DNA of 64,000 nucleotides from a bacterium (GTDB lineage Bacteria > UBP14 > UBA6098), in NCBI GenBank assembly GCA_023145965.1, contig JAGLDC010000007.1:5574-69573 (forward strand), in the 5' to 3' direction. Shown here piece by piece: positions 11,268 through 44,237 of the stretch. Within the stretch, counting starts at the first letter, position 1; each line of letters begins with the position of its first letter. Below the pieces are notes generated by a model that was not told the origin of the DNA, did not search any database, and saw only the letters and a program-made list of their open reading frames with translations. Both the position numbers and the translations under genes were made by a program.

Positions 11268-12194
11268 TTATGACAATAGACCCTCGATTATCAAATCGAC
11301 TGCTTCATCCTCGGAAAGACCCCTAGACAACAGAGTTTCGAGCTGTTTATTATCGACACTGCCAATAGCGGCTTCGTGTGTAACATGGGCTTTTGCGTTC
11401 TTAACCTCGACAATTGGCACTGCCTTGGCAGTTGCGTCATCTTGGACTATTTCTTTGCAATCGACATGGCCACGCGCATAAGGTGCATCGGCAATGAGGA
11501 CGTTGTATATTTCGGCGCGTGCCCGATCTCGAACCGCTATTCGTGAATTTAAGACTCCCACCGCGTGTTCGCCTAAAAGATACGCAGATTCTTTTATCTT
11601 TATTATATCGTCGCCTTTGCCGCTTATCTTAGATGTCATCTCCATGGTGCTACCTGCTGCCACGGTGGTTTCATAATCGATGTCGATTAAACCAACACGC
11701 CCTTTGATTAATTCGAAATCCGTTTTGAAACGGGCATTTTCTGCAAGCTTAACCCTCGCTTTAGGAATTACTGTAATTCCCCCGAGAGGGCTGTGTATAT
11801 GACGCTCGAGATATCGATATTCTGCGCCATTTTCGACTACAATTTCAGCATCCATAATATGCTTGACATCGACTGAGGATGGAAAAACGCAATGCGCGAA
11901 TATGTTGATCTTTGCTCCTTCGCCGACTCGCACATTCATCCTAATGTGCTGCAGTGCGTATTCATGAAGAACACCGAAACATAAATGCACCGGTTTTTCG
12001 ATAACGACCCCATTGAGAACATTCATAACCACGCGAACGCCGTCACTCATCTCTTCTGTGTAAACCTTAAGGCCTTTAACGAGTTTGCTGTCGGTGACTT
12101 TATTAAGGTTTATCGTTAAACGAGGCGCGGTTGGATCATGCATGAGGTTTTCCAAACCAGCTGCTGAATAAAGTTTTTTGGCGTCCATACTCAT
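11268..12194 (-). CDS. sufD: Fe-S cluster assembly protein, short SufB/SufD family
   Basis: 308 aa, directly downstream of sufC with a 4-nt overlap. Beta-helix-like repeat region with a C-terminal helical LSRGLSEDEAVDLIIEGLL, typical of SufB/SufD. Confidence 0.65.
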   Translation of the reverse strand: MSMDAKKLYSAAGLENLMHDPTAPRLTINLNKVTDSKLVKGLKVYTEEMSDGVRVVMNVLNGVVIEKPVHLCFGVLHEYALQHIRMNVRVGEGAKINIFAHCVFPSSVDVKHIMDAEIVVENGAEYRYLERHIHSPLGGITVIPKARVKLAENARFKTDFELIKGRVGLIDIDYETTVAAGSTMEMTSKISGKGDDIIKIKESAYLLGEHAVGVLNSRIAVRDRARAEIYNVLIADAPYARGHVDCKEIVQDDATAKAVPIVEVKNAKAHVTHEAAIGSVDNKQLETLLSRGLSEDEAVDLIIEGLLS

Positions 12195-12925
12195 TTCCCT
12201 CCATTGAAGCTTGGGTGGTTTTTATGGTCGCAGGGAATGCACTGATGCGAGAAATATTTCGTTATTTTTGAAATATCGCCTTTGTCAACTATCTTGCCGC
12301 AACATATAAGAAATGCATTTTCAGCATGGCTTAAAACCTCCATGCTGTGCGTAATAAGGATAACTGTAGCACCTATCTCTTTCAGATATTTAAGGGATTC
12401 AAAAATCCGATTGAGTGAAGCAACATCGATTCCGGAATCGGGTTCATCGAGCATCACAAGTTTCGGTTTCATAGCGAGTATCGAAGCAAGCTCGATTTTC
12501 TTTCGTTCACCACCACTGAGTGTTTTATCGACAGCACGATTCAAATACTCGTCGGGATTGATTCCAACCTTGTCGAGAACGGAAGAAACCGCCTTTGGTG
12601 ATTTATCCTTTGCGGAGGCTTTAATGAAGGCGCTAACCCTCATGCCCTCATATCGAGCCGGTTCTTGCCAAGCGAGTGTGATCCCGAGGCGCGCACGCTC
12701 GTCTATCGGCATGTTTTTTATAGACTTGCCCATAAATTGAATATCACCGGAAAAATGGCGATAGCCTTCGAGGCCCATAATAGTGAATGCTGTTGTTGAT
12801 TTGCCGGCACCGTTTGGCCCGACCAAAGCATGAATATGGCCATCCCAGAAATCGATATTTAAACCGTCTAGAATTTTACTTCCACCGAGTTCGAGAGTTA
12901 CATCTTTAATAATTAATTTGCCCAT
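12191..12925 (-). CDS. sufC: Fe-S cluster assembly ATPase SufC
   Basis: Walker A GPNGAGKST, ABC signature LSGGERKK, Walker B LVMLDEPDSGID. 244 aa. Confidence 0.9.
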   Translation of the reverse strand: MGKLIIKDVTLELGGSKILDGLNIDFWDGHIHALVGPNGAGKSTTAFTIMGLEGYRHFSGDIQFMGKSIKNMPIDERARLGITLAWQEPARYEGMRVSAFIKASAKDKSPKAVSSVLDKVGINPDEYLNRAVDKTLSGGERKKIELASILAMKPKLVMLDEPDSGIDVASLNRIFESLKYLKEIGATVILITHSMEVLSHAENAFLICCGKIVDKGDISKITKYFSHQCIPCDHKNHPSFNGGK

Positions 12926-15725: not shown

Positions 15726-18104
15726 TTATTTTACTTCAATGACATATGGCATAAGATAGAGCGCTTCGTAATCTTCGAACGGAAAGATTGGTGCTTTTTT
15801 CAATTCATTCAGAACGGGCATTTGTTTGACCATGCTATCGAACATATTATCGACCATAGAGCTGGTTCCCGGAAGGAACCACAGTTCGAGGTTTTTTTCA
15901 TCTGCGCCGGATTCTTGAACAATGTAATCCAGTGCATCGAGGAAACCACCCAAGGAATCCACAAGTCCTACCTCGTGGGCACGTTCGCCTGTCCACACGC
16001 GTCCTCGACCGAGAACATCTACGCTATCGACAGGAATTTCACGGCTATCTGCGACCCAATCCTTGAATATGTCGTAGAATCTAAGCGAACCACTTTGGAT
16101 GCGTTCGCGTTGTTGAGTCGAGAATGTATCTGTTGAGGAATAGATGCCTGAATTTTGGCCTCGTTCGAATGTTGTTGTCGATATTCCGATTTTATCGTAA
16201 AGCCCGCCTAAAGCGAATTTCCCGGAAATGACTCCTATTGAGCCTGTTATTGTAACATTGTCGGCAAATATTTTCTTTGCTGGCATGGAAACGAGGTAGC
16301 CACCACTAGCGGCTGCATTACCCATGCTTACGACAAGAGGTTTTTTCTCTGCGGCATCGGTGAGGGCATGCGCCATAAGGTCGCTAGCTAGCGCGCTTCC
16401 TCCTCCGGAATTTACGCGTAGTAAAATGCCTTTTACAGATCTATTCTTCTTTGCAGCATTGACTGCCGCGATAATTTCCGTTTCTCCAACATTGGATCCT
16501 CCAAGAAGTCCACCGGACCCACCTTTTCCTTTAATAATATTACCTTCTATAACTATAACAGCTATTCGATCGGGTTCACCCCACTCCATTTTGCGATATT
16601 CTTGCATAGCGAAAATGCCGAATGGTTGTGGTTTGAGGTCTTTTTCTTTCTTGATAAATTTCTCAAACTGGTCGAAATACATAAGCGAATCGATGAGGCC
16701 TAGCGAGTCTGATTCTAGGTCGTTATATGGCCCATTATCGACAAGCTCTTTCGCTTTTTCAATTGTAATTCCGCGACTTTCGGCTATGCCAGAGAGGAAT
16801 TCCTTGTTGTAAGAATCTAGAAGCTCGTTTATGTTTTGTGCGGCATATTCTGAAGGTTCACTTCTGGTAAACATCTCCATAGCGGACTTGTATTCGCCAA
16901 TATTAACGAAATCAGGTTCGACACCTATCTTTTCAAATGTCCCCTTGAAAAACTTCATCTCGGCGCGAAGACCTAGAATGCCTATGCCGTTTCCAGATGG
17001 TGGAACAGCGATGAAATTAGCTACACTAGCGAGATAATAAGACAGGTTACCAAGATTGTCCGCATAGATATATATCTCTTTGCCATTAGCTTTAAATTCT
17101 TCGAATATATTCCTCAACTCCTCAGCCTGAGCGAAATCGAAACTAGGGGATTTATAACGAATAATAAGCGCCGATATCTGGTCATCTTCGGAGGCGCGCT
17201 GTATAGTCCTTAGAAGGTTAGCGAAGGTCTTTTTCTTGCCTTTAAAAATTCCTGACTGCGCCTTTTCGGCGTATTCGCCGTTTAGATCCAGACGAAGAGG
17301 ATAACTGGGTAGCTTAAAAAGACTAGGCAAGCGTTTGGAACTTGCTAAGGAATATATAGTGTATTCTGACCATTCATCGTCGATTCCGCTGGAGGCCACA
17401 GCTCCAACGCCGCCGAATGGGTTATCTATTCGGATTCCAGCGGATATTTCATCTACAGTCTCGCCAAGAATGTCTTCACCCAGATAGTCATATCTACCGA
17501 AAAAGCGAATGCCGTCCAGAAGGTGAAGCTCTCCACCGACACCCCACCCCAGGTCTTCCCAATCGACATTGTTCTGTTTAAGCATATCGCCAAAGATGGT
17601 AACGCGCCATGTTTTTGGTCGCAATGCCAAACCAAGCCTATGGCCTTTCATTGCCTGAGTGTTTTCATAGGTCCAACCCGCAGAGACAAAATCCCACGGA
17701 CGAACAATAGCACCAAATATCCATCCGTTACGCCAACCTTCGCCCCATGCGTCGGATGATGTCCATGTGCGTAGATAGCCCAATCCGAATGTGCGTTCAC
17801 CTAGGCCTGCTCCTAGCGTCCAACGTTTCATGCCTACTATATTTTCGTATCCGCCACCGAGGCCATTCAAGTTGAAAAGAATACCGTGTGTGTTCTCTAT
17901 GTTTAAAGCAGAACTAGAGTCACTAGAAAAACTCCCGAATATCGCTGATTCGGCGCCATGGTCGAGGCCAAGATATCCGGGATTAGTATGCATTCCCATG
18001 GGGTCGTCAATTGCGGCTGTTCCCCAATAAACGCCCTGCGCCACACAAAATCCCGCTAGTGCTAAAAGTATAAGCGCGCGGTTAAACGGTCTATTCATTC
18101 TCAC
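15726..18104 (-). CDS. sppA: Signal peptide peptidase SppA (67K type, two ClpP-fold domains) with a ~260-aa N-terminal Gly/Trp/Tyr-rich beta-rich extension
   Basis: C-terminal 530 aa carries two SppA domains (..ALIIRYKSPSFDFAQAEELR..; ..GILLRVNSGGGSALASDLM..SMGNAAASGGYLVSMPAKKIFADNVTITGSIGV). The N-terminal 260 aa after the signal peptide MRMNRPFNRALILLALAGFCVAQG is rich in G, W, Y and D with alternating patterns, resembling an outer-membrane beta-barrel. Confidence 0.8.
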   Translation of the reverse strand: MRMNRPFNRALILLALAGFCVAQGVYWGTAAIDDPMGMHTNPGYLGLDHGAESAIFGSFSSDSSSALNIENTHGILFNLNGLGGGYENIVGMKRWTLGAGLGERTFGLGYLRTWTSSDAWGEGWRNGWIFGAIVRPWDFVSAGWTYENTQAMKGHRLGLALRPKTWRVTIFGDMLKQNNVDWEDLGWGVGGELHLLDGIRFFGRYDYLGEDILGETVDEISAGIRIDNPFGGVGAVASSGIDDEWSEYTIYSLASSKRLPSLFKLPSYPLRLDLNGEYAEKAQSGIFKGKKKTFANLLRTIQRASEDDQISALIIRYKSPSFDFAQAEELRNIFEEFKANGKEIYIYADNLGNLSYYLASVANFIAVPPSGNGIGILGLRAEMKFFKGTFEKIGVEPDFVNIGEYKSAMEMFTRSEPSEYAAQNINELLDSYNKEFLSGIAESRGITIEKAKELVDNGPYNDLESDSLGLIDSLMYFDQFEKFIKKEKDLKPQPFGIFAMQEYRKMEWGEPDRIAVIVIEGNIIKGKGGSGGLLGGSNVGETEIIAAVNAAKKNRSVKGILLRVNSGGGSALASDLMAHALTDAAEKKPLVVSMGNAAASGGYLVSMPAKKIFADNVTITGSIGVISGKFALGGLYDKIGISTTTFERGQNSGIYSSTDTFSTQQRERIQSGSLRFYDIFKDWVADSREIPVDSVDVLGRGRVWTGERAHEVGLVDSLGGFLDALDYIVQESGADEKNLELWFLPGTSSMVDNMFDSMVKQMPVLNELKKAPIFPFEDYEALYLMPYVIEVK

Positions 18105-18429
18105 TCCTTATTATTGTTTAACTAATTCCACTATCAAAATATCGGTTTTATTTATGATTTTCTGGAATTCTCCAAGATATCTTCTCTTTTATCTGCACAA
18201 TCGGTGGGATTGTCGCAGGCTCAGTGTTTCTTCATCCTTTCATCGGGAAAACATGATATCGAGCATATGCATAAAAGGCAATAGCAAAATCGTTATCGTT
18301 CATTTCGATAAAGCGTTTGAGCCATGAAGGATACATCTCGAAAAAGCCTTTGTCATTAGCTCGTATAGAATCTCCATAATTTGATTTTTTGCTAAATTCC
18401 TTGTGCAAATATACAGAATTATCACCACT

Positions 18430-30698: not shown

Positions 30699-30846
30699 TT
30701 AAACTTGACTTTTTGCAAATAATGTTTTAATTAATAAGCTTGTTTGAAGTCGTTATTAGTATGGGAAATGGAAAATATTGTTAAGTATAAGTTTGAATAG
30801 AAAGAATTTTATTTTTAATCCGATACTCCCGAGGAAGGGGGCATTA

Positions 30847-33800
30847 ATGGAATTTAACGCAAGAATAACGAGTGTCGCTATTGTATGCGTATTGCTTTTA
30901 GGTTCGGGCGTTCTTTTTGCTCAACCTACGGAACCACTTTGCGCAGATTTAGTGACAACCGGTTACGGCCTTATTGGTGATACCCTCGAAGGCGATTTGG
31001 TGCTTTCAGGATTCGTTAAAGGGCACAGTGTTTCGCTTGAAGTGATGCCGATGTGTGTTTCTCCAACGCGCCAATACCGTTTTTTCCGCACACCACTGGG
31101 AGCTTCGGTGCCTGATCTACAGACAGATTGGATGCCGATGGCATACACCAATATGGATGGTGGTGGTGACAGCGAAGTATTCAAATACTATGCCGCCGTG
31201 ACCGACGGTGATACAGTGACGTATTCCAATCCTGACGAGGATCCTGCAATGGACCTCTGGCTTATGCACGATTGGTATCGTCCTGACCGTATCGAGGGGA
31301 TTTCGACTTACTATTATCCGAGCCCCACGCGCATTCGTATCAACTGGTATAAAGGCACTGACAGCGCTTCTGGAGTTTATAAATATTATATTTATCGAGC
31401 TCCAAGTGGCCTAGGATATACACTCGAGTATATCGATCCTACCGAAACTCCTATCGATTCGGTTCTAGATGATGGTCGTGCTTGGTATGATTGGTCGGAT
31501 TATGAAGTTACTCCGGATGAATGTTACTGGTATGTTATTGTCCCGATGGACAAAGCTGGATGGATACGCAGGGATGGCAATGATATTTTCCGTCGTTGCG
31601 CCGCAGTTTCCGGTTTTGGATTCCCGCCTTGCGCTCAACTTCAGCCGCTAGACAGATATCATGTCGGTGGTGGTGTGACAATTCGCGTTAATCTCGATGC
31701 TTGCCCCGGCGACCCCGACGAGGTAGTTCAATATCGGTTCCGCAAGTATGGTGTCTTTATTGATTCGGTTTCCGGCGATCCCGATATGTATATCATGGAT
31801 GAAACGGACTGGACGGATACACCGTTCTACTTCTTCTCGACGATGGAGTGTTCGACATACACATTTAGTGCACAGGCGAGATACCTCGGAGGAACGACAA
31901 GTCCTTGGTCTCACCTTATACCGACCTATCCACTTACCACAAACGATCCCACGCCTCCGGGGTGCCCGGATGAAATGTTCGCGCATTCGTATGGCGAGGA
32001 TGGTATATATGTTCATTTCGAGCAAGATCCGGGGGACGATTGTGGAAGTGGAATCCTCGGTTATCACCTTTTCCGTTTCCCTGCCGATTCGATCAGCGAT
32101 CATCTTCCACCGGACTCCAGCGATATTGCTGATTATGTGCTCTGGGAATATTATGTGAACGAAGAGGGGATTTATACATTCCAGGATGATGGCCCGACCG
32201 ACCCGGTTATTGATCTTATAGATAATGTCACATATTATTATGTAGTATGTCCTTATGATTCTGCTGGCTGGACAAATTGGCTTGATTGTGGGGATCTTCA
32301 GATAGATACCGCAACTGTTGATAAGGGCGTTGCCGCGCCAATGGCAAATAGGCTTCCGGCATATGCTTGCGATGGGGAGATTTATGTTGAATTCGTAGAT
32401 ACAACCCGTTGTGATGCCACCGAGGTCGAGATACAATGGTCGGCGGAACCGGAATTTGGCGGCGCGACATTCGTCGGCGTTGGCCCGATACCATTACACG
32501 GTGATACCGCGATCGGCGGTTTCTTCGATTTCACGAACCATGACGACGGTATCTGCACTAACTGGGATACGCTACAAGTCAATATCAGTGGTCTTTATGA
32601 AACACAGTGGTTCTTCCGCGCGCGTTTCTACGATATTCACAGCAACGTTTCCGAGTGGAGCAATATTTCTATAACACGCGTTGATAATACTCCGCCAACG
32701 ACAACGAGCATTATTAATGTTCAGTCTTTCTCGGATAGCGTTAATACTGTCGATATTCTTTTGAACTGGGATGAAAGTGATTTCAACGATGCTGATGGAA
32801 TTGGTATCGATTCGGTAAAAGTCTATCGTTCAGCAATGGCAGGCGATTTAGGAACCGTAATTGCCACAGTTTCCAAATTTGATAACAAGTTCGTCGATTA
32901 CGATCCTGTTCCGACGAACAACTGGCACGATAATGTTTATCGAGTGGTGCCTTATGATTATTGCGGACATATGAACACCGAGGGCGGCCAAGGTTGTTTT
33001 GCAGCACTTGGACAGCATCCGCCGGCAGTCCCGCGTATCGACACGGTTCTTGTTAGTCACTATCTCGATTCCTTCACTATAGTATGGTCGGATACCGGCA
33101 TAAGCCCGCTTACGACGAAATATGTTCTTCGCCACGGTGGAACCGAAAGCTGGCTTTGGATCGGCGACACAATTATCGCCCCCAATACTCACCTCGGCAC
33201 GGTGCCTTCGCATCGCTACACCTTCCCAATAGAGGAACTTTTCGGTGGCCCGAGGCATTATTTCATGATGTATGCCCTTGATGGTGAATCCCCGGCTAAC
33301 CAGAGCGGTTGGTCAGAGGTTTTTGCTTTCGATCTTCCTGAGGCGTTGACCGTCACGGATACTATTCATATTCGCGCTGGATGGAACTTTATCAGTCTTC
33401 CGGTTATGCCAGCCAATAATGAGGCTAATGTCATATTCCCCGGTGGACTTGATTATTATGAATGGAATCCAACGACCTCGATATATGATCCGATTACTGT
33501 TATGCAACCGGGTAAAGCCTATTGGGTGCTTATGTCATCCACAGCGGATTATCCGATTACAGGTATTCCTGTGGTCAGAGTCGAGGAGACTGAAATTGGC
33601 CCTGGATGGTGGAGTATTGGAACTCCTTATGATTCTACTGTTGCAATGCTTGGGAGCGGTTTTACCTGGGACGGAACCGGTTGGGCACGAGCCTACGGTT
33701 ACGATGGTGAAACACCTTATTATACGACAACCCATCTGAATGGTGGAGAGGCGTATTGGCTTCTTCTCAGCGGAACAGGGGATTTTTATTCCGAAGCTGG

Positions 33801-34464
33801 AATGGCTAAAGGGATAGTCGATGATCCGGTTATCGATTGGAACATAAACATCGATATAGATGGCAGTCCCATCGAACTGGCATATTCGACTCACGCCGAA
33901 AGCGGAATCGATGCGGCAGATATTGTAATGCCGCCTGCGCCGCCATCGGGTGCCTTCAGCCCATGTTTCGTTGACGAATCTGGCTATCGTTACTTGCGCG
34001 AGGTAAGGCCGGATGGTGTATGGAATATCTCGGCGCCATATGGCTCTATCATTAGCTGGAACGCAAAGGCGCTTCCTTCGGTTGAACTTGAGATTGTTAC
34101 CGATTTTGGGACGTTTGATATGCACAAGGTTGAAAGCATAGAATTCCTTGGGACAGCGAAAGTTGTTACAAAGGGCGTTCTTCCGACCGAGTTTACTCTT
34201 GGTCAGAATGTTCCAAATCCATTCAATGCTACATCTACGGTGCCGTTCAGCGTTCCGGTGGATTCAAGAGTGTCCATTAAGATATACGACATCAATGGCC
34301 ACACGATTTCGACCCTCGTCGAGAGCTATGTCGAGGTTGGAAGCCATCGTGTTGTTTGGGATGGTTTGGACGATCTCGGACGATCTGTTCCTTGTGGAAT
34401 TTACCTTTGTAGGATGGAAGCGGGGAGCTTTGCCGAGACAAGGCGAATGCTTCTAGTGAAATAG
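30847..34464 (+). CDS. Giant secreted surface protein (1205 aa) with a T9SS C-terminal sorting domain
   Basis: Signal peptide MEFNARITSVAIVCVLLLGSGVLFAQ. Aromatic/Asp-rich beta-sandwich-like repeats. C-terminus QNVPNPFNATSTVPFSVPVDSRVSIKIYDINGHTISTLVE..HRVVWDGLDDLGRSVPCGIYLCRMEAG matches the type-A T9SS CTD. Confidence 0.75.
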   Translation: MEFNARITSVAIVCVLLLGSGVLFAQPTEPLCADLVTTGYGLIGDTLEGDLVLSGFVKGHSVSLEVMPMCVSPTRQYRFFRTPLGASVPDLQTDWMPMAYTNMDGGGDSEVFKYYAAVTDGDTVTYSNPDEDPAMDLWLMHDWYRPDRIEGISTYYYPSPTRIRINWYKGTDSASGVYKYYIYRAPSGLGYTLEYIDPTETPIDSVLDDGRAWYDWSDYEVTPDECYWYVIVPMDKAGWIRRDGNDIFRRCAAVSGFGFPPCAQLQPLDRYHVGGGVTIRVNLDACPGDPDEVVQYRFRKYGVFIDSVSGDPDMYIMDETDWTDTPFYFFSTMECSTYTFSAQARYLGGTTSPWSHLIPTYPLTTNDPTPPGCPDEMFAHSYGEDGIYVHFEQDPGDDCGSGILGYHLFRFPADSISDHLPPDSSDIADYVLWEYYVNEEGIYTFQDDGPTDPVIDLIDNVTYYYVVCPYDSAGWTNWLDCGDLQIDTATVDKGVAAPMANRLPAYACDGEIYVEFVDTTRCDATEVEIQWSAEPEFGGATFVGVGPIPLHGDTAIGGFFDFTNHDDGICTNWDTLQVNISGLYETQWFFRARFYDIHSNVSEWSNISITRVDNTPPTTTSIINVQSFSDSVNTVDILLNWDESDFNDADGIGIDSVKVYRSAMAGDLGTVIATVSKFDNKFVDYDPVPTNNWHDNVYRVVPYDYCGHMNTEGGQGCFAALGQHPPAVPRIDTVLVSHYLDSFTIVWSDTGISPLTTKYVLRHGGTESWLWIGDTIIAPNTHLGTVPSHRYTFPIEELFGGPRHYFMMYALDGESPANQSGWSEVFAFDLPEALTVTDTIHIRAGWNFISLPVMPANNEANVIFPGGLDYYEWNPTTSIYDPITVMQPGKAYWVLMSSTADYPITGIPVVRVEETEIGPGWWSIGTPYDSTVAMLGSGFTWDGTGWARAYGYDGETPYYTTTHLNGGEAYWLLLSGTGDFYSEAGMAKGIVDDPVIDWNINIDIDGSPIELAYSTHAESGIDAADIVMPPAPPSGAFSPCFVDESGYRYLREVRPDGVWNISAPYGSIISWNAKALPSVELEIVTDFGTFDMHKVESIEFLGTAKVVTKGVLPTEFTLGQNVPNPFNATSTVPFSVPVDSRVSIKIYDINGHTISTLVESYVEVGSHRVVWDGLDDLGRSVPCGIYLCRMEAGSFAETRRMLLVK

Positions 34465-34490
34465 TATCAACCAACTGGATATGAGTAGTT

Positions 34491-37400
34491 ATGATAAAAA
34501 TAAACATAAAGGATAAGGAGCGAGCCTTGAGAGTAAAGACTATGCCTATTATACTCGGTATTCTGGCTCTCGGGCTTTTTGGAAGCCTGTTAGCGCAATC
34601 AGCGCCTGTAGTTGAGCCGGAGCCGGCATATACTGCGGGACATGTCAACCCTTTGCTGTGGTCCGAACCTACAAGCTATAGTGTTACAATTTCAGCTTGG
34701 GAGATTTGGGTTGATACAGCATCTACCGGATTTCCTGATTGGCCGGATTCGGCCTATGAGGAGCTTTTGGGACCAGATAGAATCTCTATCGGCCCGATAC
34801 CGGTGACAGATGCTGCTGATTTCGGTTCTACCTACGGAAGCGAATATGCTTATCCGATCGGTAGCGGTGTTTATGGCGATTCCGACGATCCTCTTACTTC
34901 AGGATTGCGGTATTGTTATAAAGTGCGTTATCGTTGGTACACACCGCCTTCAACTTACGGGTTCTCCGATTGGTCTGAGACACATTGTAGTGTTCAGGAT
35001 GCCGCACCACCTACTGTCGAAATTGATTCTTTACCGGATTGGTGGAATACCGATGAGGTATCGATTCATTATATAGCCAATGATGCCCTCGTTGGTGAAG
35101 TCGATAGTGTGGTATTATATTACAGAATGCCGCCTTCGACCGATTGGATTAGGGTGTTTGCAGAAGCACCGCCACCACCTGGTTACGACGACTATATGGA
35201 ATTTGATATTACAGGAACCGGCGATGGTGAATACGAGTTTTTCATCGGCGCATGGGATGCCTTGGGCAATGGAACCATTCCACTGGGAACGCTTCATGCC
35301 CCAATGGCTGACACAAGGGTTGATGATACTGATCCGACAAGTGCCATTATAGAAACGGAAGATTTACCGCTTTATTATACAGGTTGGCCCGAAGGAATTA
35401 ATCTATTTTTCTCAGCCTCTGATTCATATAGCGGTTTAACAGCAGTCTATCTTGATACCGATTACGGCGATACTCCGCCGTTACCTTTCGATAGTCTATT
35501 TTTCCCGGCTGTGGAAAGTGTCACGCGCGATACCTTCGTATTTTCACGCACCGAGAATGGCGAGTGGAACATTCGTGCTAGAGCTGTCGATTTGGCCGGT
35601 AATCATGAATCAGAAACGACCTGGGATTGGACTTTTTATGTCGATACTCAGGAGCCTGAGTTTACTTCGACAACGGTTATAGACTCGACAACGGTTTCCC
35701 ATCGCTATGATGTTCCTGCAATGCATGGCTGGACAAACTCTCGGGCCGTCAAAGTAACGCCCGAAAGCGCTATCGACCCATTGGTTGATGGTTATGCCAG
35801 CGGCTTGGATACCGTTTCGGTTGCCTCGAATTCGGCATTCACCGAGGATTATATGGCTTTTGTGGCAGGAACACCGCCCTATATTTGGATTACTTCGGAT
35901 GACGACGGCGCAAAGGAAGCATATGTCCATCTCAAGGACAGAGCTACTAATATCAGCGAGTCGAGGTTTGGGGTAATCGAACTCGATACCGAGGTTCCGG
36001 TTCTTTCGGCATGCACACTTTGGAACCATGTAACGCCGGATACCTACACCGACACAACGGTTTCGCTCACTGTCGATGTTACCGCTAATCTCGATCCTTA
36101 TTACGGCTCGGCCAGCGGAATATACTTCGCGCAGAATGCTTCCAATCTTAATTCCATTGATACTGACGATTGGCAGGCGGTAGATGGCGATTATACATTT
36201 ACCTTCGATGGCTTCTCATCGGGCGAGTGGATGACGCTTTATGTTGTAGTTCGCGATAGTGCTGGTAACGTTAGCGAAGCTGCGATAGATAGCATAAGGT
36301 ATATTCATGGAAATAAGTGGGTCGAAATATTCAATATTCGCGATATCGACGGCCCCGATGTTACAGGAAGATACACCGATACAACCGAAATATCTATTGA
36401 GATAGCATACGGTAATGGAATAGATACATTATTGGTTTGGGATGGAAGCTCCATGTTGGGATTACCCGATACTGTTTTCCCTGTGGACGATCCTACCGGT
36501 GATTCGGATACGATAACCATAATTGGCAAACTTGAAAGGACAGACGGTTGGCATACATTGTCCGTTCGCGGAAAGACCGATTATGATATTATCCTCACAG
36601 ATCCGGATACTGCTTCGATAGAGCTTGATATTCAGCATCCGACGGTTCCAGATTTTCTCGTGTTAGACCTTACGATACACACAGAACCTTCAGGTCCTGC
36701 AGATGTTGCCGATACAGGTTGGACGAACGATGCAGATGTTAAAGGCATGTTCACTGGCAGCTACGACACAGGTGGCGAATCCAGTGGAACCGGCCTTTAT
36801 AGGTATAAGGTATCCATCGATACTCTAGTTCTCGGCACTGATGCATTCCCGGGGACTTATCAAGTTGACTTTGCGCTTCCAGTCGCTGATGGCCCTAGTG
36901 ATGTTATCGGTGATGTTCAGGATTCCAGCGGGAATTGGGCCTCTGAAGATGCCGACCCGATTTTCAACATTAAACTCGATACACATATTCCGACTATAGA
37001 CTCGATCCAGCTTTTAGATGCTACAAGTCTTTCACCGGATTATACCGACGATCCAAGTATCGTTGTTAAGATTTTCGGCGATGATGATCCATACACGCCG
37101 GCTTATGCATCGATTTTCGAGGATGGAACGGATTATCCAAATATCGTCCGCTCGATACGCCGTTCATTCAGTTCGGGGACATTAAGTTATATGCTTACAG
37201 ATACGCTCACAGGCGGTATTAAGACGGTTTATGTTGCTCTTATGGATAGAGCTGGGAATATCTCGGCGATTTCTTCGGCCACAATCGTATATAATAAGGA
37301 AATCGTTCTCGACATGTCGCTTTACGACTGCGATAGCGAACCAGAGAATAATGAATGCACGAATGACCCAACTGTTGGTGTGCATTTGTTTGCTTATGGA

Positions 37401-39278
37401 ACTCCGGCTGCAGCTTATATTCTTTCCGAGACACCGGGCGGTTTGCCCGAACCTGACGACCCGCGTTGGATAGACTATCCCGAGAGCGGTGATACTTTAT
37501 TTACCATGGTATTGGATGCCACCGAAGGCGAAAAAGTTATTTATGGATGGCTTCTTTCCGAGAGCTATATAGTCAGTGAGATGGACGAAGACACTATCTA
37601 TCTTGACATGACAGCACCGGAACAGAATGAGGGGTTCTTCGTATGGGATACCACTTCGGGAGATAACTTCCCCACCATATTTAAAGCGGCTATGGGCTGG
37701 TCGAACGAGAGTTATATATTTGCGCAGGTGCCTTTCTCCTATGATGAGGGCTGTGGAACCGATAGTATAAAGTTCTCTGGTGGTATCGACCTTGAGCTCT
37801 GGAGAGACATCGACCATGTTATTGATATCGAGGAACATAGTATTTCATTGGACTTCAGAACGGATAGTCTTCCATTGGTTATCGACACAGACTCCGAGGG
37901 TAGAAAGCAGATAGTTTCGCGTCTTCGCGACTCCGCAGGTAATTGGGGCAATGTTTTCGATCCATTGAGTCAGATAACCATACACGGCGGTTACGATGTT
38001 ACCGCACCTGATTTCGATTTTCTCGATGTTTTCAGTGAAGAGGTTACGGATAGCGTTACTTCGGTGCTTCCGAACTCTCTTCCAATAAAATTCATGGACG
38101 ACCCCGCACCGGGCTTTCTCTGGAAAGTTTGCTGGCAGATCGACTCCGATCCAACCAGGATAAGTTGCACGACTTACGATTCAACCTGGGATACGCCTGC
38201 CGATAGTATTTTCTATGCGGCTTTCCCGGGCGATTTAACAAGTGGTCTTGTTCCCGATCAGCATTACGATCTCAGTATAGTAGTGATCGATTCGGCGGGT
38301 AATCCAAGCGATCTTAAAACAGCGGATCTATTAATAATACCGGATTCAATCGAGTTCGCTTTCGAGGTTGTCGATACTAATGATCTCGAAGATAGCGATT
38401 ACTGTGGCGAAGTAACTGTCGCCACGCATGTTATGATGGATAATCCTCCGGATTATATGAGATTCGGCGAAAGCGCAAGCGGTTTAGGTAGCTGGATGGA
38501 TTATTCCGAATATGGGGAGTTCACGTTTAGCTCCAGCTTGAACCAGATGAAATATGTCTATGCTCAGATTCGTTATGGAACACAGGAATCAAAGATTGCG
38601 GTAGATTCAATCATTCTCGATACTCAGAATCCAAGCGTTTCTAATATCGAAGCCTTCGATATATCGACTGGCGATAGATATTATTCGGACGATGTGGAAA
38701 TTGGATTTAAGGCCTATGGTGCCAGCGATCCTAATCCGGGTATTGTGGGTGCTATGCTCATTGCTGAGGATGCAGATTTTACACTGAATGTTCAGAAGTG
38801 TGAACTCGATCTTACTGATACAACTTGCACTTATACTGCTTCAGAACTTGCAGATATAGATGATGATGCCTCAGCTTCCGGTGAAATTCGACAGGATGCT
38901 AGAGTATTTTGGGTGAAGTTGCTCGACCGCGCCGAGAACCCGGCTTCGATTAAAATGCCCGCTATTGTTATAGATTTAGATGAAGAGCTTGTGACCAACT
39001 TCCCAAATCCTTTCGATCCGACGGAAGAACCCACTATTGTTAGGGTCAAGGGGATTTCGATAGGTGGATCGGTAGAGGTTAGTATCTATGATAATTATGG
39101 TAACTTGGTATGGAATACGACAGTCTCCGCTCTCGGTGGAAGTAAAACAGTTGATGTTTTGTGGAACGGCAAGAACGGAAAGGGTGATGTTGTTGCCGGA
39201 GGAGTTTATGTGGCAATTGTAGAGGTCGAAGGAGAAATCATAAAACGCAAAATAGCTGTATGGAAGGGGGGTGAGTAG
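34491..39278 (+). CDS. Giant secreted surface protein (1595 aa) with a T9SS C-terminal sorting (FlgD-Ig-like) domain
   Basis: N-terminal signal (MIKINIKDKERALRVKTMPIILGILALGLFGSLLAQS). Many Ig/cadherin-like Asp/Thr-rich segments. C-terminus TNFPNPFDPTEEPTIVRVKGISIGGSVEVSIYDNYGNLVWNTTV..VLWNGKNGKGDVVAGGVYVAIVEVEG fits the CTD pattern. Confidence 0.75.
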   Translation: MIKINIKDKERALRVKTMPIILGILALGLFGSLLAQSAPVVEPEPAYTAGHVNPLLWSEPTSYSVTISAWEIWVDTASTGFPDWPDSAYEELLGPDRISIGPIPVTDAADFGSTYGSEYAYPIGSGVYGDSDDPLTSGLRYCYKVRYRWYTPPSTYGFSDWSETHCSVQDAAPPTVEIDSLPDWWNTDEVSIHYIANDALVGEVDSVVLYYRMPPSTDWIRVFAEAPPPPGYDDYMEFDITGTGDGEYEFFIGAWDALGNGTIPLGTLHAPMADTRVDDTDPTSAIIETEDLPLYYTGWPEGINLFFSASDSYSGLTAVYLDTDYGDTPPLPFDSLFFPAVESVTRDTFVFSRTENGEWNIRARAVDLAGNHESETTWDWTFYVDTQEPEFTSTTVIDSTTVSHRYDVPAMHGWTNSRAVKVTPESAIDPLVDGYASGLDTVSVASNSAFTEDYMAFVAGTPPYIWITSDDDGAKEAYVHLKDRATNISESRFGVIELDTEVPVLSACTLWNHVTPDTYTDTTVSLTVDVTANLDPYYGSASGIYFAQNASNLNSIDTDDWQAVDGDYTFTFDGFSSGEWMTLYVVVRDSAGNVSEAAIDSIRYIHGNKWVEIFNIRDIDGPDVTGRYTDTTEISIEIAYGNGIDTLLVWDGSSMLGLPDTVFPVDDPTGDSDTITIIGKLERTDGWHTLSVRGKTDYDIILTDPDTASIELDIQHPTVPDFLVLDLTIHTEPSGPADVADTGWTNDADVKGMFTGSYDTGGESSGTGLYRYKVSIDTLVLGTDAFPGTYQVDFALPVADGPSDVIGDVQDSSGNWASEDADPIFNIKLDTHIPTIDSIQLLDATSLSPDYTDDPSIVVKIFGDDDPYTPAYASIFEDGTDYPNIVRSIRRSFSSGTLSYMLTDTLTGGIKTVYVALMDRAGNISAISSATIVYNKEIVLDMSLYDCDSEPENNECTNDPTVGVHLFAYGTPAAAYILSETPGGLPEPDDPRWIDYPESGDTLFTMVLDATEGEKVIYGWLLSESYIVSEMDEDTIYLDMTAPEQNEGFFVWDTTSGDNFPTIFKAAMGWSNESYIFAQVPFSYDEGCGTDSIKFSGGIDLELWRDIDHVIDIEEHSISLDFRTDSLPLVIDTDSEGRKQIVSRLRDSAGNWGNVFDPLSQITIHGGYDVTAPDFDFLDVFSEEVTDSVTSVLPNSLPIKFMDDPAPGFLWKVCWQIDSDPTRISCTTYDSTWDTPADSIFYAAFPGDLTSGLVPDQHYDLSIVVIDSAGNPSDLKTADLLIIPDSIEFAFEVVDTNDLEDSDYCGEVTVATHVMMDNPPDYMRFGESASGLGSWMDYSEYGEFTFSSSLNQMKYVYAQIRYGTQESKIAVDSIILDTQNPSVSNIEAFDISTGDRYYSDDVEIGFKAYGASDPNPGIVGAMLIAEDADFTLNVQKCELDLTDTTCTYTASELADIDDDASASGEIRQDARVFWVKLLDRAENPASIKMPAIVIDLDEELVTNFPNPFDPTEEPTIVRVKGISIGGSVEVSIYDNYGNLVWNTTVSALGGSKTVDVLWNGKNGKGDVVAGGVYVAIVEVEGEIIKRKIAVWKGGE

Positions 39279-39280
39279 TC

Positions 39281-41095
39281 ATGAGTAGAAAATTTAAACT
39301 CGACTATCTCTGGATTATCCCGCTTTTCGCATTGGTTTCTTTCTCAGCTTTCGCTCAGGATGGCAGTGCCGGTCAAGCCGGGGAGCTTCTCCGTAGTGGA
39401 CTCGATGCAAGGAGTTTCTCTATGGGCAGAGCATATACTGTAATGCCCACAGGGGGCGATGCCCTCGTTTGGAATCCCGCCGGATTAGGAAAACTCGGAC
39501 GCTGGGAATTTCGTTTCATGCATGCTCAAGGCTATGTCGATAGCAGAACCGAATACGGAAGTTTCGCTATTCCTATCGGGGATCTCGGTGGTTTTGGTAT
39601 AGGCTTTGCCAATGAAGGAGTGACCTCTATAGAGGGCCGCGATGCTTTCAACCGTTCTACCGAAGAAATTTCTTGGGGAGAATCAGCCGCTCTGTTTGGT
39701 TGGGGTCGGGCGTTCATGCAGAACAAATTGTATGGTGGTCTTACCGCTAAATATGTGATGCAGAATATGGGAGACGAATCCGCAAATGGTTTTGGCGGCG
39801 TCGATGTCGGCTTTCTGTCTAAAGAATTCATGTTTAAATATCGCGTTGGTTTGACGCTTCAGAACCTCGGTGCAGCCGAGGTAGCTGGTGATGCCTATCC
39901 GATGACCGTTCGAGCTGGCGTCGGTTGGAGGGTTCTTAATGACCTTTATGTTACAGCCGATGGTGAGATGGTTTCTGGAAGGGATATTTCACCGCGAGTC
40001 GGCGCTGAATATCATCTTGGATGGGTAGCAATCCGCGCAGGATACGATATAATGAAGCCAGAGCTTACATTCGGACTTGGGTTGATGATCGACAATATAG
40101 CCGGTAGAGTTGCAGGGACTTATCCGAGATTAGATTATGCCGGAGGAGCATTAGCGCCGATAGGCAATAATTTTGCGAGAGTTTCTTTGACTCTTATGGG
40201 CGAGGAAATGAGCAAACTTGAGGATATTGAAGGTGATCCGTGTTCACAGTTATCGACCATTGAACCGCATATGAGTAAGCGCGGTTTTGTTGGAGCGAAA
40301 GCAAACTTGATCTACGGAGAATGCCGTTTCAAGGCTGAAGCTCTTGAAGCACCATTTGACATTGAACCTCGTTTTGGCGAAATTCATCCCTTCTTCAATT
40401 CTGCCTATTATGGTAAGTATGGTTCTAACTGGATGACCGAGATAGTTACGGATACTCTAGCTCAGACTGTATTTAGCCAGAAAACACATTATATGTATGC
40501 TGAAACGCGTATGGCTAAAGGCATAGATGAAGAAGCCAAAATCCTTCTTGATCAATTGATTTCGGCAGGTGGCGACAGCGCTCAATATGACCTTCGCCTT
40601 CAATATGATCTAGCTTTGATCAATGAAGAATTAGGCGAAACTGACGCGGCACTTAAGGACTACGAGTCTATCGCAGGGAAGAATGTAGATGACCCTGTTA
40701 AGGTTCTCGCTCTTTATCGTGCAGCAAATATACTCAGAGATAGAGATAAGACGAAGGCAATTAATTACCTAGAGACTTTAGTAAGTAAATATGGATCAGG
40801 CTTTTATGATGAAAGCGGTGAAAGAATCGGCTATCCCATGTTCCCCAAGTATATGGATAACTCGATTGCCGATGACGCTACGATCCTGTTAGCCGATATT
40901 ATTTTCTCCACTGCAAGCGGAGACCCAACCGTGCTTCGTAAAGCATTGGGACTTTATCTAGATGTTTTAATTTACTATCCGGATATGCAAGCTTCGATTC
41001 GTCGTGAAGCTGCGGAAAAAGCCGCTATATGTTTCGAAGAACTTGGAGATTCCGCGAGCGCAGCTTCGATGCGCTCGAAAGCGGGTGAGATTTAA
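39281..41095 (+). CDS. Putative outer-membrane beta-barrel (PorV/PorQ/PorP-type, FadL-like) fused to a C-terminal TPR-like domain
   Basis: Signal peptide ..LFALVSFSAFAQ. N-terminal motif DARSFSMGRAYTVMPTGGDALVWNPAGLG resembles the conserved start of T9SS-associated FadL-like barrels. Gly/aromatic-rich alternating strands follow to ~aa 330. The C-terminal 250 aa is helical repeats (TPR-like). Confidence 0.4.
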   Translation: MSRKFKLDYLWIIPLFALVSFSAFAQDGSAGQAGELLRSGLDARSFSMGRAYTVMPTGGDALVWNPAGLGKLGRWEFRFMHAQGYVDSRTEYGSFAIPIGDLGGFGIGFANEGVTSIEGRDAFNRSTEEISWGESAALFGWGRAFMQNKLYGGLTAKYVMQNMGDESANGFGGVDVGFLSKEFMFKYRVGLTLQNLGAAEVAGDAYPMTVRAGVGWRVLNDLYVTADGEMVSGRDISPRVGAEYHLGWVAIRAGYDIMKPELTFGLGLMIDNIAGRVAGTYPRLDYAGGALAPIGNNFARVSLTLMGEEMSKLEDIEGDPCSQLSTIEPHMSKRGFVGAKANLIYGECRFKAEALEAPFDIEPRFGEIHPFFNSAYYGKYGSNWMTEIVTDTLAQTVFSQKTHYMYAETRMAKGIDEEAKILLDQLISAGGDSAQYDLRLQYDLALINEELGETDAALKDYESIAGKNVDDPVKVLALYRAANILRDRDKTKAINYLETLVSKYGSGFYDESGERIGYPMFPKYMDNSIADDATILLADIIFSTASGDPTVLRKALGLYLDVLIYYPDMQASIRREAAEKAAICFEELGDSASAASMRSKAGEI

Positions 41096-41148
41096 TTATG
41101 AAAAACCAAAAAACCAATATAACTAATATGTTTCCCAAGGAGGAACAA

Positions 41149-42516: not shown

Positions 42517-42532
42517 CCCAAGGAGGGGCAGA

Positions 42533-43102
42533 ATGCCCAGAAAACAAACAGAGGCTGTACCTTCTGCTGACTGGACCTCCTTAATCGATATCATCTTCCA
42601 GTTGCTCATCTTCTTCATGGTGACGCTGGCTATGGGGACAGTCGAGCAACAGGCTAGTGCCCAGATGGAAGGTGAAATGGATGAGAGCCTACCCGAGTTG
42701 CCCGGAATGAGTAATCTCGGTGAAGCCTTAGAAATCGGCCCCGGCGTGATACTTATTCATGCCGCTTACGATGAAGATAATGAAGTTGCAGGCGATATAG
42801 TAACATATCTCTTTACGAACGAGATCTCGAATATTGAAGAGGCGAAGAAAGATTCAACTCATAGCGCGGGTCCGTTCTCTTGGGATAAAGCCTATAAGAA
42901 GCTGCAAAAGCAGCTTACTTTTGCTCGTGATTACAACGAAAACCTTCCGAGGGTCGAGATGAGGGCTTTTAAGGGAACTCCTTACGGTAATGTTCTCGAT
43001 ATTATGAACCTATGCTATCACGACGAACCCGAAATGAGAATCGATCAGGTATATTTTAGGTTTGCTAGATTAGCTAGAGAGCAATTGGGAGGTGGAAGTT
43101 AG
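42533..43102 (+). CDS. exbD: ExbD/TolR-family biopolymer transport protein (paralogue 1)
   Basis: N-terminal DWTSLIDIIFQLLIFFMVT is the ExbD/TolR TM signature. SD AAGGAGGGG. Confidence 0.75.
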   Translation: MPRKQTEAVPSADWTSLIDIIFQLLIFFMVTLAMGTVEQQASAQMEGEMDESLPELPGMSNLGEALEIGPGVILIHAAYDEDNEVAGDIVTYLFTNEISNIEEAKKDSTHSAGPFSWDKAYKKLQKQLTFARDYNENLPRVEMRAFKGTPYGNVLDIMNLCYHDEPEMRIDQVYFRFARLAREQLGGGS

Positions 43103-43663
43103 ATGCAGAGAAGATATCTTAATCTTGAAAGCGCCGACTGGACGCCTTTAATCGATATTATCTTCCAGTTGATGATCTTCTTCCTGGTAACGATGAGCGT
43201 TCTTCCGGCGGTGAAATCTGCACCGCAGGTCGAGGGGAATATGTCGCTTCCGACACCGAATCAAGGAAGTTCTGAAGTCTCACACCTTATTCAGATATTG
43301 AAGGTCCCTTTCAAATCCGACATGTATGGTTATCTTGTTCTTGACGGCACTCCGCAATCTGCCGAATTCTATAAGGATGTTGACAGAAACCGTCAGTTTT
43401 TAGGTGACCAATATGCATTGGAAAGTGAAATTGTTCTTGGAACAAATATGGGGCTTTGGTTTAACGAGACAAGTCTTAAAGCGAAGTTTCAAGAAGCCTT
43501 CAGTCAACAGGATGTTAAGGTGATTATTAGAGCTGCCAGGAATGTCCCATATGGAGAGGTAGTAAAGGTTCATTCGATATTGTTTAATATCGGTATATCC
43601 AAGATCGCTTGGTTGGATGGCAAGATTGGAACTCTTAAGGCTGACATCAAGGAGGTGAGGTAG
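43103..43663 (+). CDS. exbD: ExbD/TolR-family biopolymer transport protein (paralogue 2)
   Basis: DWTPLIDIIFQLMIFFLVT. The start directly abuts the previous stop. SD GGAGGTGG. Confidence 0.75.
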   Translation: MQRRYLNLESADWTPLIDIIFQLMIFFLVTMSVLPAVKSAPQVEGNMSLPTPNQGSSEVSHLIQILKVPFKSDMYGYLVLDGTPQSAEFYKDVDRNRQFLGDQYALESEIVLGTNMGLWFNETSLKAKFQEAFSQQDVKVIIRAARNVPYGEVVKVHSILFNIGISKIAWLDGKIGTLKADIKEVR

Positions 43664-44230: not shown

Positions 44231-44237
44231 TAACAAA

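Follow-up and report, generated by a model that had tools for sequence, protein, structure and literature searches.

A predicted FadL/PorV-type outer-membrane barrel fused to the peptidase SppA in UBP14 and other little-studied diderm lineages

A barrel-SppA fusion gene in UBP14

The window analyzed here, a 64,000-nucleotide stretch of contig JAGLDC010000007.1 from a bacterium of the lineage UBP14, encodes on its reverse strand an SppA-type peptidase with a long N-terminal extension (Table 1). The ORF list gives this gene as 15726..18104 (-), with a stop codon at 15726-15728 and 792 aa counted from a GTG at 18104-18102. This GTG overlaps the AAGGAG ribosome-binding site, and because that site lies 5 nt upstream of an ATG at 18098, the sequence makes the ATG the more plausible start. 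The length of 792 aa reported in the first-pass annotation is thus correct for the ORF as listed, while the better start gives a product of 790 aa (P0001) that is 100% identical to NCBI MCK5832177.1.

Table 1. Features of the fusion gene, numbered from the first letter of the window.
Feature	Positions	Strand	Basis
Whole gene, barrel-SppA fusion, 790 aa	15726..18098	-	ORF list; ATG and ribosome-binding site; protein identical to MCK5832177.1
Ribosome-binding site AAGGAG	18104..18109	-	Sequence read; 5 nt upstream of the ATG at 18098
Predicted signal peptide, residues 1-20 (MNRPFNRALILLALAGFCVA)	18039..18098	-	Sole transmembrane-helix-like hydrophobic segment; AF2 helix 4-18, low pLDDT
Predicted N-terminal plug ("hatch"), residues 21-48	17955..18038	-	Invariant N39-P40 of the NPGYLG motif; pLDDT ~90
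Predicted 14-stranded antiparallel beta-barrel, residues 49-253	17340..17954	-	
Pro-rich linker, residues 254-265 (SKRLPSLFKLPS)	17304..17339	-	AF2 secondary structure; conserved S259, P264, P258
SppA N-terminal S49 domain, residues 266-505	16584..17303	-	Pfam, TIGR00705, Foldseek to 3bf0
SppA C-terminal S49 domain, residues 506-742	15873..16583	-	Pfam best stretch 585-730; TIGR00706
C-terminal tail, residues 743-790	15729..15872	-	Conserved end motif LYLMPYVIEVK; low-confidence model

Metagenome-assembled genomes can contain artefactual long fusions, and this prior, together with the lack of any Pfam family covering the N-terminal part, is what speaks for a frameshift or misassembly that joined an outer-membrane protein gene to sppA, or else for a soluble beta-sandwich at the N terminus. 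However, a single unbroken ORF spans the barrel and SppA parts, the GC content runs smoothly through their junction with no step, and independent assemblies carry the same architecture. A frameshifted upstream gene would have left close homologs without the N-terminal region, and 13 full-length homologs at 54-75% identity were found. The fusion is real: chance, frameshift, and misassembly are all excluded, which settles the concern over a misassembled junction raised in the first-pass annotation, and this alternative as a whole is almost certainly wrong.

The SppA moiety and its catalytic dyad

Pfam recognizes only Peptidase_S49 in the fusion, in 2 stretches (E 6.9e-66). The SppA_67K model TIGR00705 aligns its positions 73-555 of 590 to residues 289-763, and its score of 290.5 bits falls just below the cut-off of 311.45, as the fusion lacks a match to model positions 1-72; the domain model TIGR00706 passes (218.4 vs a cut-off of 155.45). 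A Foldseek search with the full predicted model matched E. coli SppA (3bf0) at E 1e-38 and TMt 0.86. The 2 Peptidase_S49 stretches and this fold match agree with the earlier proposal that two SppA ClpP-fold domains follow the extension. A second SppA or another copy of the barrel was considered and rejected, as no other S49 ORF was found across the window.

The predicted general base Lys404 (codon 16887-16889, within EYKSA) and the predicted nucleophile Ser598 (codon 16305-16307, within AASGGY) are invariant in 34 sequences and align to the lysine of GTYKSA and the serine of AASGGY in E. coli SppA. Their partners are chain positions 184 and 384 of the E. coli protein, with an offset of +25 to its dyad numbering, which we take to be K209 for the general base and S409 for the nucleophile. 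The Ser-Lys dyad of E. coli SppA is described in a review (PMC9360617). Conservation of Lys404 and Ser598 suggests that the SppA moiety is most likely catalytically competent. In the monomer model the C-terminal tail drops to pLDDT <50 at residues 745-772, 776-779, and 783-790, and its end motif is kept both in fused forms and in unfused canonical SppA.

A predicted outer-membrane barrel in place of the inner-membrane helix

Compared with canonical SppA, the fusion has ~265 additional residues at its N terminus. The region originally flagged as a Gly/Trp-rich extension, 17325-18104, corresponds to residues 1 to ~258 and thus takes in the signal peptide, plug, and barrel. The peptides quoted for it are present in the sequence, and residues 22-255 contain 16.7% Gly and 5.1% Trp versus 9.7% and 0.8% in the SppA part. 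The signal peptide that had been proposed there was also recovered, and forms the sole 19-aa hydrophobic window in the whole protein. No lipobox was found in it, and signal peptidase I would be expected to cut before Q21, which is invariant in the close clade. The predicted plug that follows is confidently modeled ahead of strand 1, with a short helix at residues 40-44. Its N39 and P40 are invariant in alignments of 24 and 34 homologs, in a motif that reads NPA in the majority of homologs and NPG in the present protein, and the plug region is the source of weak profile matches to BamG and PorV.

Structure prediction, suggested at the outset as a check on the barrel-like extension, gave a full-length model with pLDDT 85.5 and pTM 0.81 in which residues 49-253 form a 14-stranded antiparallel barrel, and the closest folds to this domain are FadL and PorV. 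This supports a predicted FadL/PorV-type outer-membrane barrel, an assignment based on the modeled structure and one short motif, NP(A/G). Among 24 members, neither Pfam nor NCBIfam yielded a significant match to the barrel: Toluene_X and PorP_SprF from Pfam each appeared in 1 of 24 (E 0.085 and 0.17, respectively), and no NCBIfam model, PorV_fam included, matched it below E 0.05. The window's own PorV/PorQ-like barrel matched the SppA barrel at E 1.7e-4 by hmmsearch and weakly by hhalign (probability 25%). Separately, we observed that the same window encodes a second protein with a barrel plus periplasmic domain design.

The lengths of the barrel connections across 34 homologs carry a topology signature. 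Seven alternate connections are variable (sd 2.1-6.3) and 5 of the remaining 6 are fixed (sd 0-0.8), the exception to the alternation being the S2-S3 connection (sd 3.9). Since variable and fixed lengths alternate in this way, as they do in outer-membrane proteins, the alignment supports a topology in which both barrel ends, and hence SppA, would face the periplasm. R160-P161 is invariant and sits in a fixed-length turn predicted to be periplasmic. The outward connections of the present protein are very short, at 2-11 residues, and the domain measures ~230 aa, whereas PorV and FadL have 345-444 aa. The shortest strands in the model are 2 and 3, with 8 residues each, which is only suggestive of a lateral opening.

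This topology bears on the idea of a surface protease resembling an inverse autotransporter, in which the SppA domains at the C terminus would reach the cell surface by way of the N-terminal barrel. We consider this exceedingly unlikely, as the model has 14 strands and an N-terminal plug instead of a 12-strand barrel with a linker through the pore, the folded protease lies only 12 residues past strand 14, an enzyme of ~530 aa that is expected to oligomerize would have to be exported as the passenger, and the fixed-length turns lie on the same side as the barrel termini.

Those 12 residues join strand 14 to the first SppA strand, and within the close clade they include the invariant S259 and P264 and a nearly invariant P258. 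In canonical relatives a transmembrane helix lies exactly where the barrel ends in the fusion, and its spacing of ~12 aa to the first SppA strand equals the length of the linker. In 19-aa windows no hydrophobic helix besides the signal peptide was found in the fusion, so an uncleaved inner-membrane anchor was not seen. This comparison supports the conclusion that the inner-membrane helix of SppA has been replaced by a cleavable signal peptide and a complete outer-membrane barrel. The first-pass annotation had proposed that a barrel fusion would place SppA at the outer membrane, and this gains support from the predicted barrel fold, the topology signature, and the lack of another anchor. The active site of E. 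coli SppA is far from the membrane, and its substrates are peptides already released into the periplasm (PMC9360617). With the active site remote from the membrane, activity could therefore be kept when the anchoring membrane changes.

Distribution and genomic context

In addition to the 13 close homologs, many more were found at ~30% identity. A profile of the barrel matched 4191 clusters (defined at 50% identity) at E<=1e-3, 1344 at <=1e-10, and 165 at <=1e-30. Lengths in relatives, which the original annotation had proposed to compare, are mostly 740-890 aa among the best 150 matches listed. All 12 of the shorter profile matches that were checked (362-596 aa), candidates for stand-alone barrels, run on into SppA and are truncated fusions or fragments.

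A genome scan with the close-clade alignment found the fusion in 40 of 80 GTDB loci, all 40 from diderm lineages, and the barrel fusion is absent from Nocardiopsis and Caldilineaceae. The architecture is confirmed in at least 8 diderm lineages, with carriers in UBP14, Zixibacteria, Cloacimonadota, Marinimicrobia, Delongbacteria, Eisenbacteria, and uncultured Spirochaetota. No cultured, studied carrier was identified among the fusion loci and homologs found. An all-against-all comparison of 39 fusion loci found no neighbors shared across phyla and only lineage-level synteny with an ABC ATPase in 12 of the 39.

Leptospira was considered as a possible carrier. Surface proteomics of L. interrogans lists SppA among the abundant surface-exposed proteins (PMC8659334), and two fusion loci come from MAGs titled "Leptospira biflexa". 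A search for Leptospira carriers with this long form returned only uncultured Spirochaetota proteins and no named Leptospira, and we do not claim a barrel in L. interrogans SppA.

Barrel-anchored SppA is thus widespread in several little-studied phyla, and in the literature on SppA together with the outer membrane, beta-barrels, FadL, or PorV we found no description of this architecture. Since nearly all carriers are uncultured, the architecture has been overlooked under the annotation "S49 family peptidase".

Proposed role of the fusion

We think it likely that this protein is an outer-membrane-tethered periplasmic SppA that clears peptides, with a FadL/PorV-type barrel standing in for the inner-membrane helix. 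Sequence analysis and structure prediction provide the domain composition, the barrel fold class, the dyad, the lack of another anchor, the conservation across phyla, and the topology signature on which this proposal is built. The protein would be exported by Sec and its signal peptide removed, probably before Gln21, which would eliminate its sole hydrophobic helix. We infer that BAM would then insert the barrel, which may serve solely as an anchor, into the outer membrane. The SppA moiety would hang 12 residues beneath the inner face of the outer membrane, a distance equal to that between canonical SppA and the inner membrane. The E. coli enzyme suggests, by analogy, that this moiety may form a tetrameric bowl that opens towards the outer membrane and is held by four barrels. 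It would degrade hydrophobic peptides that either float free in the periplasm or lie against the outer membrane on its periplasmic side, for example fragments of signal peptides after their release, membrane-active peptides, or the remains of envelope proteins that failed to assemble.

Replacing one helix by a 230-aa barrel, complete with an invariant plug motif, is costly, and this hints that the barrel has some further role besides that of an anchor. One such role would make the barrel a working FadL/PorV-type channel or receptor that passes peptides to the SppA chamber below, a coupled channel-protease machine fed from the exterior or the outer membrane, with antimicrobial peptides, nutrient peptides, and cleaved sorting signals as candidate cargo. 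The fold neighbors fit this idea, FadL being a lateral-gate transporter of hydrophobic molecules and PorV part of the type IX secretion translocon. So do the invariance of N39-P40 down to ~17-25% identity, the conservation of the barrel at the level of the protease (77% and 75% identity to the homolog P0002, respectively), and a short fixed linker that would hold the protease under the barrel. The best 150 matches all have the size of SppA or, in the shorter cases checked, are truncated SppA fusions, so this barrel subfamily appears to be dedicated to SppA. On the other hand, the outward connections lack the extended external loop structures of FadL and PorV, and no operon partner was found at the 39 fusion loci. 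Spirochaetota carry the fusion and, to our knowledge, have no type IX secretion, which rules out a general link to sorting signals. Overall, we regard a channel-protease machine as unlikely, and the more specific route, with hydrophobic or amphipathic peptides entering through the plug or a lateral gate into an SppA chamber tethered by four barrels, as similarly improbable.

FadL-family barrels have elsewhere been recruited to non-transport roles, as in BamG (PMC12611786), a precedent that counts in favor of the channel idea. In another reading, the SppA barrel would dock on BAM as a paralog of the FadL-like BamG of the FCB superphylum. The SppA chamber would then sit under BamA and clear stalled or misfolded outer-membrane protein substrates. 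We consider this very unlikely.

SppA is the textbook inner-membrane "signal peptide peptidase", and the fusion adds a large, ancient, and well-conserved branch that appears built to hang from the outer membrane. Under the outer-membrane-tethered reading, a better picture of SppA would be that of a peptide-clearing chamber in the periplasm, close to a membrane, for which one anchoring membrane can be exchanged for another. The fusion would add a further case to the recent finding that barrels with the FadL fold serve in roles other than transport, examples being BamG in BAM and PorV in type IX secretion. With its 230 residues, the compact barrel appears to be an N-terminal module for outer-membrane anchoring that can be reused, and it could be useful for engineering and for annotation, as current family models miss it. 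A channel-protease machine, if true, would be a previously unknown route to destroy or harvest peptides at the outer membrane in whole candidate phyla and in uncultured spirochaetes.

Comparison with known systems

We know of S49 proteases of the SppA kind otherwise only as inner-membrane proteins. E. coli SppA (protease IV, 67K; MEROPS S49; PDB 3BF0/3BEZ) shares with the fusion the tandem S49/ClpP-fold domains at 28-29% identity, the structural match noted above extending over ~495 aligned columns. Also shared are the aligned positions of the Lys base in the first domain and the Ser nucleophile in the second, a catalytic part expected in the periplasm, and, as in the canonical relatives, an N-terminal anchor ~12 residues before the first strand. 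The two differ in the anchor itself, which is an uncleaved inner-membrane helix in the 618-aa E. coli protein and a predicted cleaved signal peptide plus 14-strand barrel in the 790-aa fusion.

FadL/TodX (PDB 1T16, 3DWO, 3BRZ) have 12-13% identity to the barrel, with no significant Toluene_X match. At 404-444 residues they are larger than the ~230-residue SppA barrel because its outer loops are minimal, and unlike them the fusion barrel bears a large C-terminal periplasmic enzyme. PorV/PorQ (PDB 6H3I chain F) differ in that the SppA barrel has no NCBIfam PorV_fam match and the fusion also occurs in Spirochaetota. Inverse autotransporters (type Ve, intimin/invasin) have a 12-strand barrel and a pore-crossing linker to a surface passenger, neither of which is seen in the fusion.

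OmpA joins an outer-membrane barrel at its N terminus to a periplasmic domain at its C terminus, and Prc-NlpI and CtpA-LbcA are periplasmic proteases tethered at the outer membrane. In all three, as would be the case for the fusion, a component of the outer membrane keeps a periplasmic domain or protease at the inner face of this membrane. The fusion differs from them in combining anchor and protease in one polypeptide, with a predicted 14-strand FadL-type barrel in place of an 8-strand barrel or a lipoprotein adaptor.

The fusion gene and its product

Read from the listed GTG, the fusion gene is an uninterrupted ORF of 792 aa, as the first-pass annotation had it. This GTG overlaps an AAGGAG ribosome-binding site seen in the upstream DNA, and an ATG lies five bases downstream of that site, two codons beyond the GTG. 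The ATG is therefore likely the true start, giving a product of 790 aa that begins with MNRPFNRALILLALAGFCVAQG. The same start is used in the deposited protein MCK5832177.1 ("S49 family peptidase [bacterium]"), to which the 790-aa product is identical. The gene is flanked by those for a class I fumarase subunit and a cupin, then by those for a Na/Pi cotransporter and PhoU, and no second S49 gene is found in the 64-kb window.

Features of the window, in window coordinates
Feature	Position	Strand	Details
ABC-type ATPase	12191..12925	minus	also at loci L003, L025, L027, L028, L030, L032, L044, L048, L051, L055 and L077 of the GTDB scan
Fusion ORF as listed	15726..18104	minus	uninterrupted, 792 aa from GTG
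C-terminal tail, residues 743-790	15729..15872	minus	LYLMPYVIEVK end; pLDDT <50 over most of its length (monomer model)
Gln21	18036..18038	minus	directly after the predicted signal-peptide cut
ATG start	18096..18098	minus	likely true start
GTG start	18102..18104	minus	listed start
AAGGAG	18104-18109		ribosome-binding site
Possible surface-protein gene cluster	30778..49241	plus	two giant proteins, barrel-TPR protein, MotA/ExbB, two ExbD, others
PorV/PorQ-like barrel-TPR protein, 604 aa	39281..41095	plus	NCBIfam and profile matches

The SppA moiety and the exchange of its anchor

Pfam finds only two Peptidase_S49 stretches in the fusion protein, and Foldseek superposes the full model on the E. 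coli enzyme (3BF0; E ~1e-38, TMt 0.86, 28-29% identity), in agreement with the two SppA ClpP-fold domains that had been read from the sequence. Residues 289-763 align to positions 73-555 of the NCBIfam model SppA_67K, so that, on this alignment, the first ~265 residues occupy the place of ~70 in canonical SppA, inner-membrane helix included. Lys404 (EYKSA) and Ser598 (AASGGY) are invariant in 34 of 34 sequences and align to the corresponding lysine and serine of E. coli SppA, which we take to be K209 and S409, and the enzyme should therefore be active. Both the Ser-Lys dyad and the tetramer of SppA have been described (PMC9360617).

Unfused SppA of Acidobacteriota, Planctomycetota, and Spirosoma starts with a transmembrane helix, and its first strand follows ~12 residues past the helix ("..SVLVLQVSGDLPD", with "YPLRLDLNGEYAE" as the counterpart in the fusion protein). 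The C-terminal motif is also shared ("..MLPYELEVK" in unfused SppA versus "..LYLMPYVIEVK" in the fusion protein). Since helix, ~12 residues, and the same first strand succeed one another in the unfused relatives, the sequences place the barrel exactly where the helix used to be, at equal spacing, as an anchor swap. According to its PDB title, the B. subtilis SppA structure 4KWB has C-termini bound in the active sites, and by analogy the C-terminal tail of the fusion protein might be an autoinhibitory or self-processed segment.

A predicted 14-stranded barrel

The N-terminal extension, flagged early on as Gly/Trp-rich, contains 16.7% Gly and 5.1% Trp, versus 9.7% and 0.8% in the rest of the protein. 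No Pfam or NCBIfam model matches it, either in the fusion protein or in 24 diverse homologues scanned singly. The AlphaFold2 full-length model, built on an alignment of 34 long-form homologues (mean pLDDT 85.5, pTM 0.81), has a signal helix at residues 4-18, a plug segment at ~21-48 with a short helix over an NPGYLG motif, exactly 14 antiparallel strands within residues 49-253, and a 12-residue linker leading to the SppA fold. Residues 1-272 modelled separately give the same 14 strands (pLDDT 87.2); all structural statements made here rest on AlphaFold models from shallow alignments (34 and 24 sequences). The barrel suspected in the first-pass annotation is thus predicted, and a soluble beta-sandwich is refuted as far as these models go.

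The NPA motif is a hallmark of FadL, and a FadL "delta NPA" mutant is present in the PDB (2r4o). A profile of the domain weakly matches F. johnsoniae BamG (E 0.0019) and PorV (E 0.074), both matches being centred on the N-terminal NPA motif, and Asn39-Pro40, Gly107, and Arg160-Pro161 are invariant across all aligned homologues. The spirochaete fusion proteins have INPVF(A/S)D as their plug motif, in place of NPAGLG. FadL-family proteins are characterised by 14 strands together with a tail or plug at the N-terminus (PMC12611786). As far as the predicted model shows, the barrel has the structure of the FadL/PorV superfamily, with 14 strands and an N-terminal plug carrying NP(A/G), and it reaches no FadL/PorV sequence-model threshold. 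BamG being the best sequence match, the barrel could be a BamG paralogue that docks to BamA, but FadL and PorV match better structurally, the distinctive BamG tail and pillar are missing, and the fusion occurs in Spirochaetota too, which leaves this reading improbable.

Topology and membrane anchoring

Outer-membrane barrels classically alternate variable loops with tight turns. We measured mid-point distances between consecutive strands in the 34 aligned homologues: connections 1-2, 3-4, 5-6, 7-8, 9-10, 11-12, and 13-14 vary (sd 2.1-6.3 residues), while 4-5, 6-7, 8-9, 10-11, and 12-13 are essentially fixed (sd 0-0.8), connection 2-3 (sd 3.9) being the sole exception to the alternation. On this pattern strand 1 would begin, and strand 14 would end, on the tight-turn, periplasmic side, and with a linker of only 12 residues the S49 domains should be periplasmic as well. 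An inverse-autotransporter-like display of the peptidase at the cell surface is contradicted by the number of strands, by the plug and short linker, and by this topology signature, and we give it very little credence.

Helix-like hydrophobicity is confined to the signal peptide, so once this is removed the barrel is, judging from the sequence, the sole possible membrane anchor. Loop lengths and the lack of another hydrophobic helix both support the peptidase location at the outer membrane that was proposed at first pass. Under the "Q-rule" of Bacteroidota, a Gln after the signal peptidase I site is cyclised to pyroglutamate. Gln21 is invariant in 13 close homologues (..AQG or ..AQN), which would fit, by analogy, an FCB-group organism under this rule.

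Distribution of the fusion

A word-indexed search with the full-length protein returned 13 full-length homologues of 775-814 aa that are 54-75% identical to it, one labelled Zixibacteria, and many long forms at ~30% identity, Fermentibacterales and Delongbacteria among them. Residues 1-285 alone gave zero matches at E<=1e-3 in this search, missing even the identical database protein that the full-length query retrieved at once; its negatives for Gly-rich barrel domains are untrustworthy. With the barrel profile, an exhaustive HMMER search of 1.84 billion cluster representatives gave 4191 matches (E<=1e-3), of which 1344 reach E<=1e-10 and 165 reach E<=1e-30. Lengths among the 150 matches listed are mostly 740-890 aa, and the 12 shorter ones fetched are truncated and all continue into SppA sequence.

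In a GTDB scan of one genome per species, 40 of the 80 loci returned (two of them partial) carry the barrel and S49 domains in one ORF. The carriers belong to UBP14 (the closest, 75% identity), Zixibacteria, Ca. Electryonea, Delongbacteria, Cloacimonadota, Neomarinimicrobiota, Eisenbacteria, and several uncultured Spirochaetota, and no cultured, experimentally studied carrier was identified among them. The window organism is itself a member or near relative of the UBP14/Zixibacteria part of the FCB group. Ordinary SppA of 576-640 aa is found at loci of Acidobacteriota, Gemmatales, Caldilineaceae, Nocardiopsis, Sumerlaeota, and Spirosoma. Homologues and GTDB loci show the same architecture, the ORF is continuous, and GC content is smooth across the barrel/SppA junction, which excludes a frameshift or misassembly artefact. 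Three fusion loci come from metagenome bins titled "Leptospira biflexa" (L026, L042) and "Winogradskyella sp." (L047), species labels that look unreliable; when the L026 form was used as a protein query, its relatives were all uncultured Spirochaetota, with no named Leptospira among them.

The barrel is conserved equally to the enzyme and its subfamily is apparently dedicated to SppA; together with the invariant plug motif this makes a working FadL/PorV-like conduit or receptor feeding the protease attractive, but the outer loops are minimal and we consider such a role unlikely.

Gene neighbourhood and other barrel proteins

No neighbour gene is conserved across phyla among 39 fusion loci compared. 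In 12 of the 39, mostly in Cloacimonadota, an ABC-type ATPase is encoded no more than a few kb from the fusion, which looks like lineage-level synteny and not a functional link; the one in the window adjoins a SufBD-core gene and is therefore probably SufC.

Residues ~35-275 of the 604-aa protein, with an NPAGLG motif, match the NCBIfam "PorV/PorQ family protein" (E 3e-22, 79.6 bits against a cut-off of 90), and its C-terminal part holds TPR repeats. Among window ORFs it gives a weak match (E 1.7e-4) to the HMM of the barrel fused to SppA, and hhalign against the barrel profile is also weak (probability 25%). This second protein in the window with an N-terminal FadL/PorV-type barrel and a C-terminal periplasmic domain suggests that such barrels are a reusable outer-membrane anchor module. 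The surrounding cluster contains two giant proteins of 1228 and 1595 aa. They have Ig-like domains, and their C-terminal tails bear a weak resemblance to sorting domains of type IX secretion (Por_Secre_tail at E 0.0011, short of the cut-off, and matches to tail regions of PorU and PorZ). They are followed by the barrel-TPR gene, MotA/ExbB, two ExbD genes, a 188-aa ORF, an NHL-repeat protein of 1120 aa, and a TPR protein. The cluster may encode a surface-protein system that is related to type IX secretion or energised by ExbBD.

Proposed role and comparison with known systems

The reading best supported by the sequences and predicted structures (domain composition, fold class, dyad, lack of another anchor, topology signature, and conservation), with function drawn by analogy, is an SppA hung from the outer membrane by a BAM-inserted barrel. 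After Sec export and signal-peptide cleavage, BAM would insert the barrel into the outer membrane, leaving the SppA moiety suspended in the periplasm directly beneath it, presumably as a bowl-shaped tetramer, the usual form, tethered by four barrels, where it would degrade hydrophobic peptides. In E. coli SppA the active sites are far from the membrane and the substrates are peptides already released into the periplasm (PMC9360617), so a move from inner- to outer-membrane anchor would be consistent with unchanged chemistry and perhaps unchanged substrates.

Full-text literature searches on SppA with outer membrane, beta-barrel, FadL, or PorV turned up no account of this architecture, a widespread combination of a known enzyme with a known barrel fold by which the enzyme would be relocated. 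In catalytic residues and fold the fusion protein is an S49 SppA of the E. coli 67K type, but that type is defined by an inner-membrane anchor, which the fusion protein lacks, and it narrowly misses the TIGR00705 cut-off. Its barrel likewise differs from the FadL/PorV superfamily in lacking the long outer loops.
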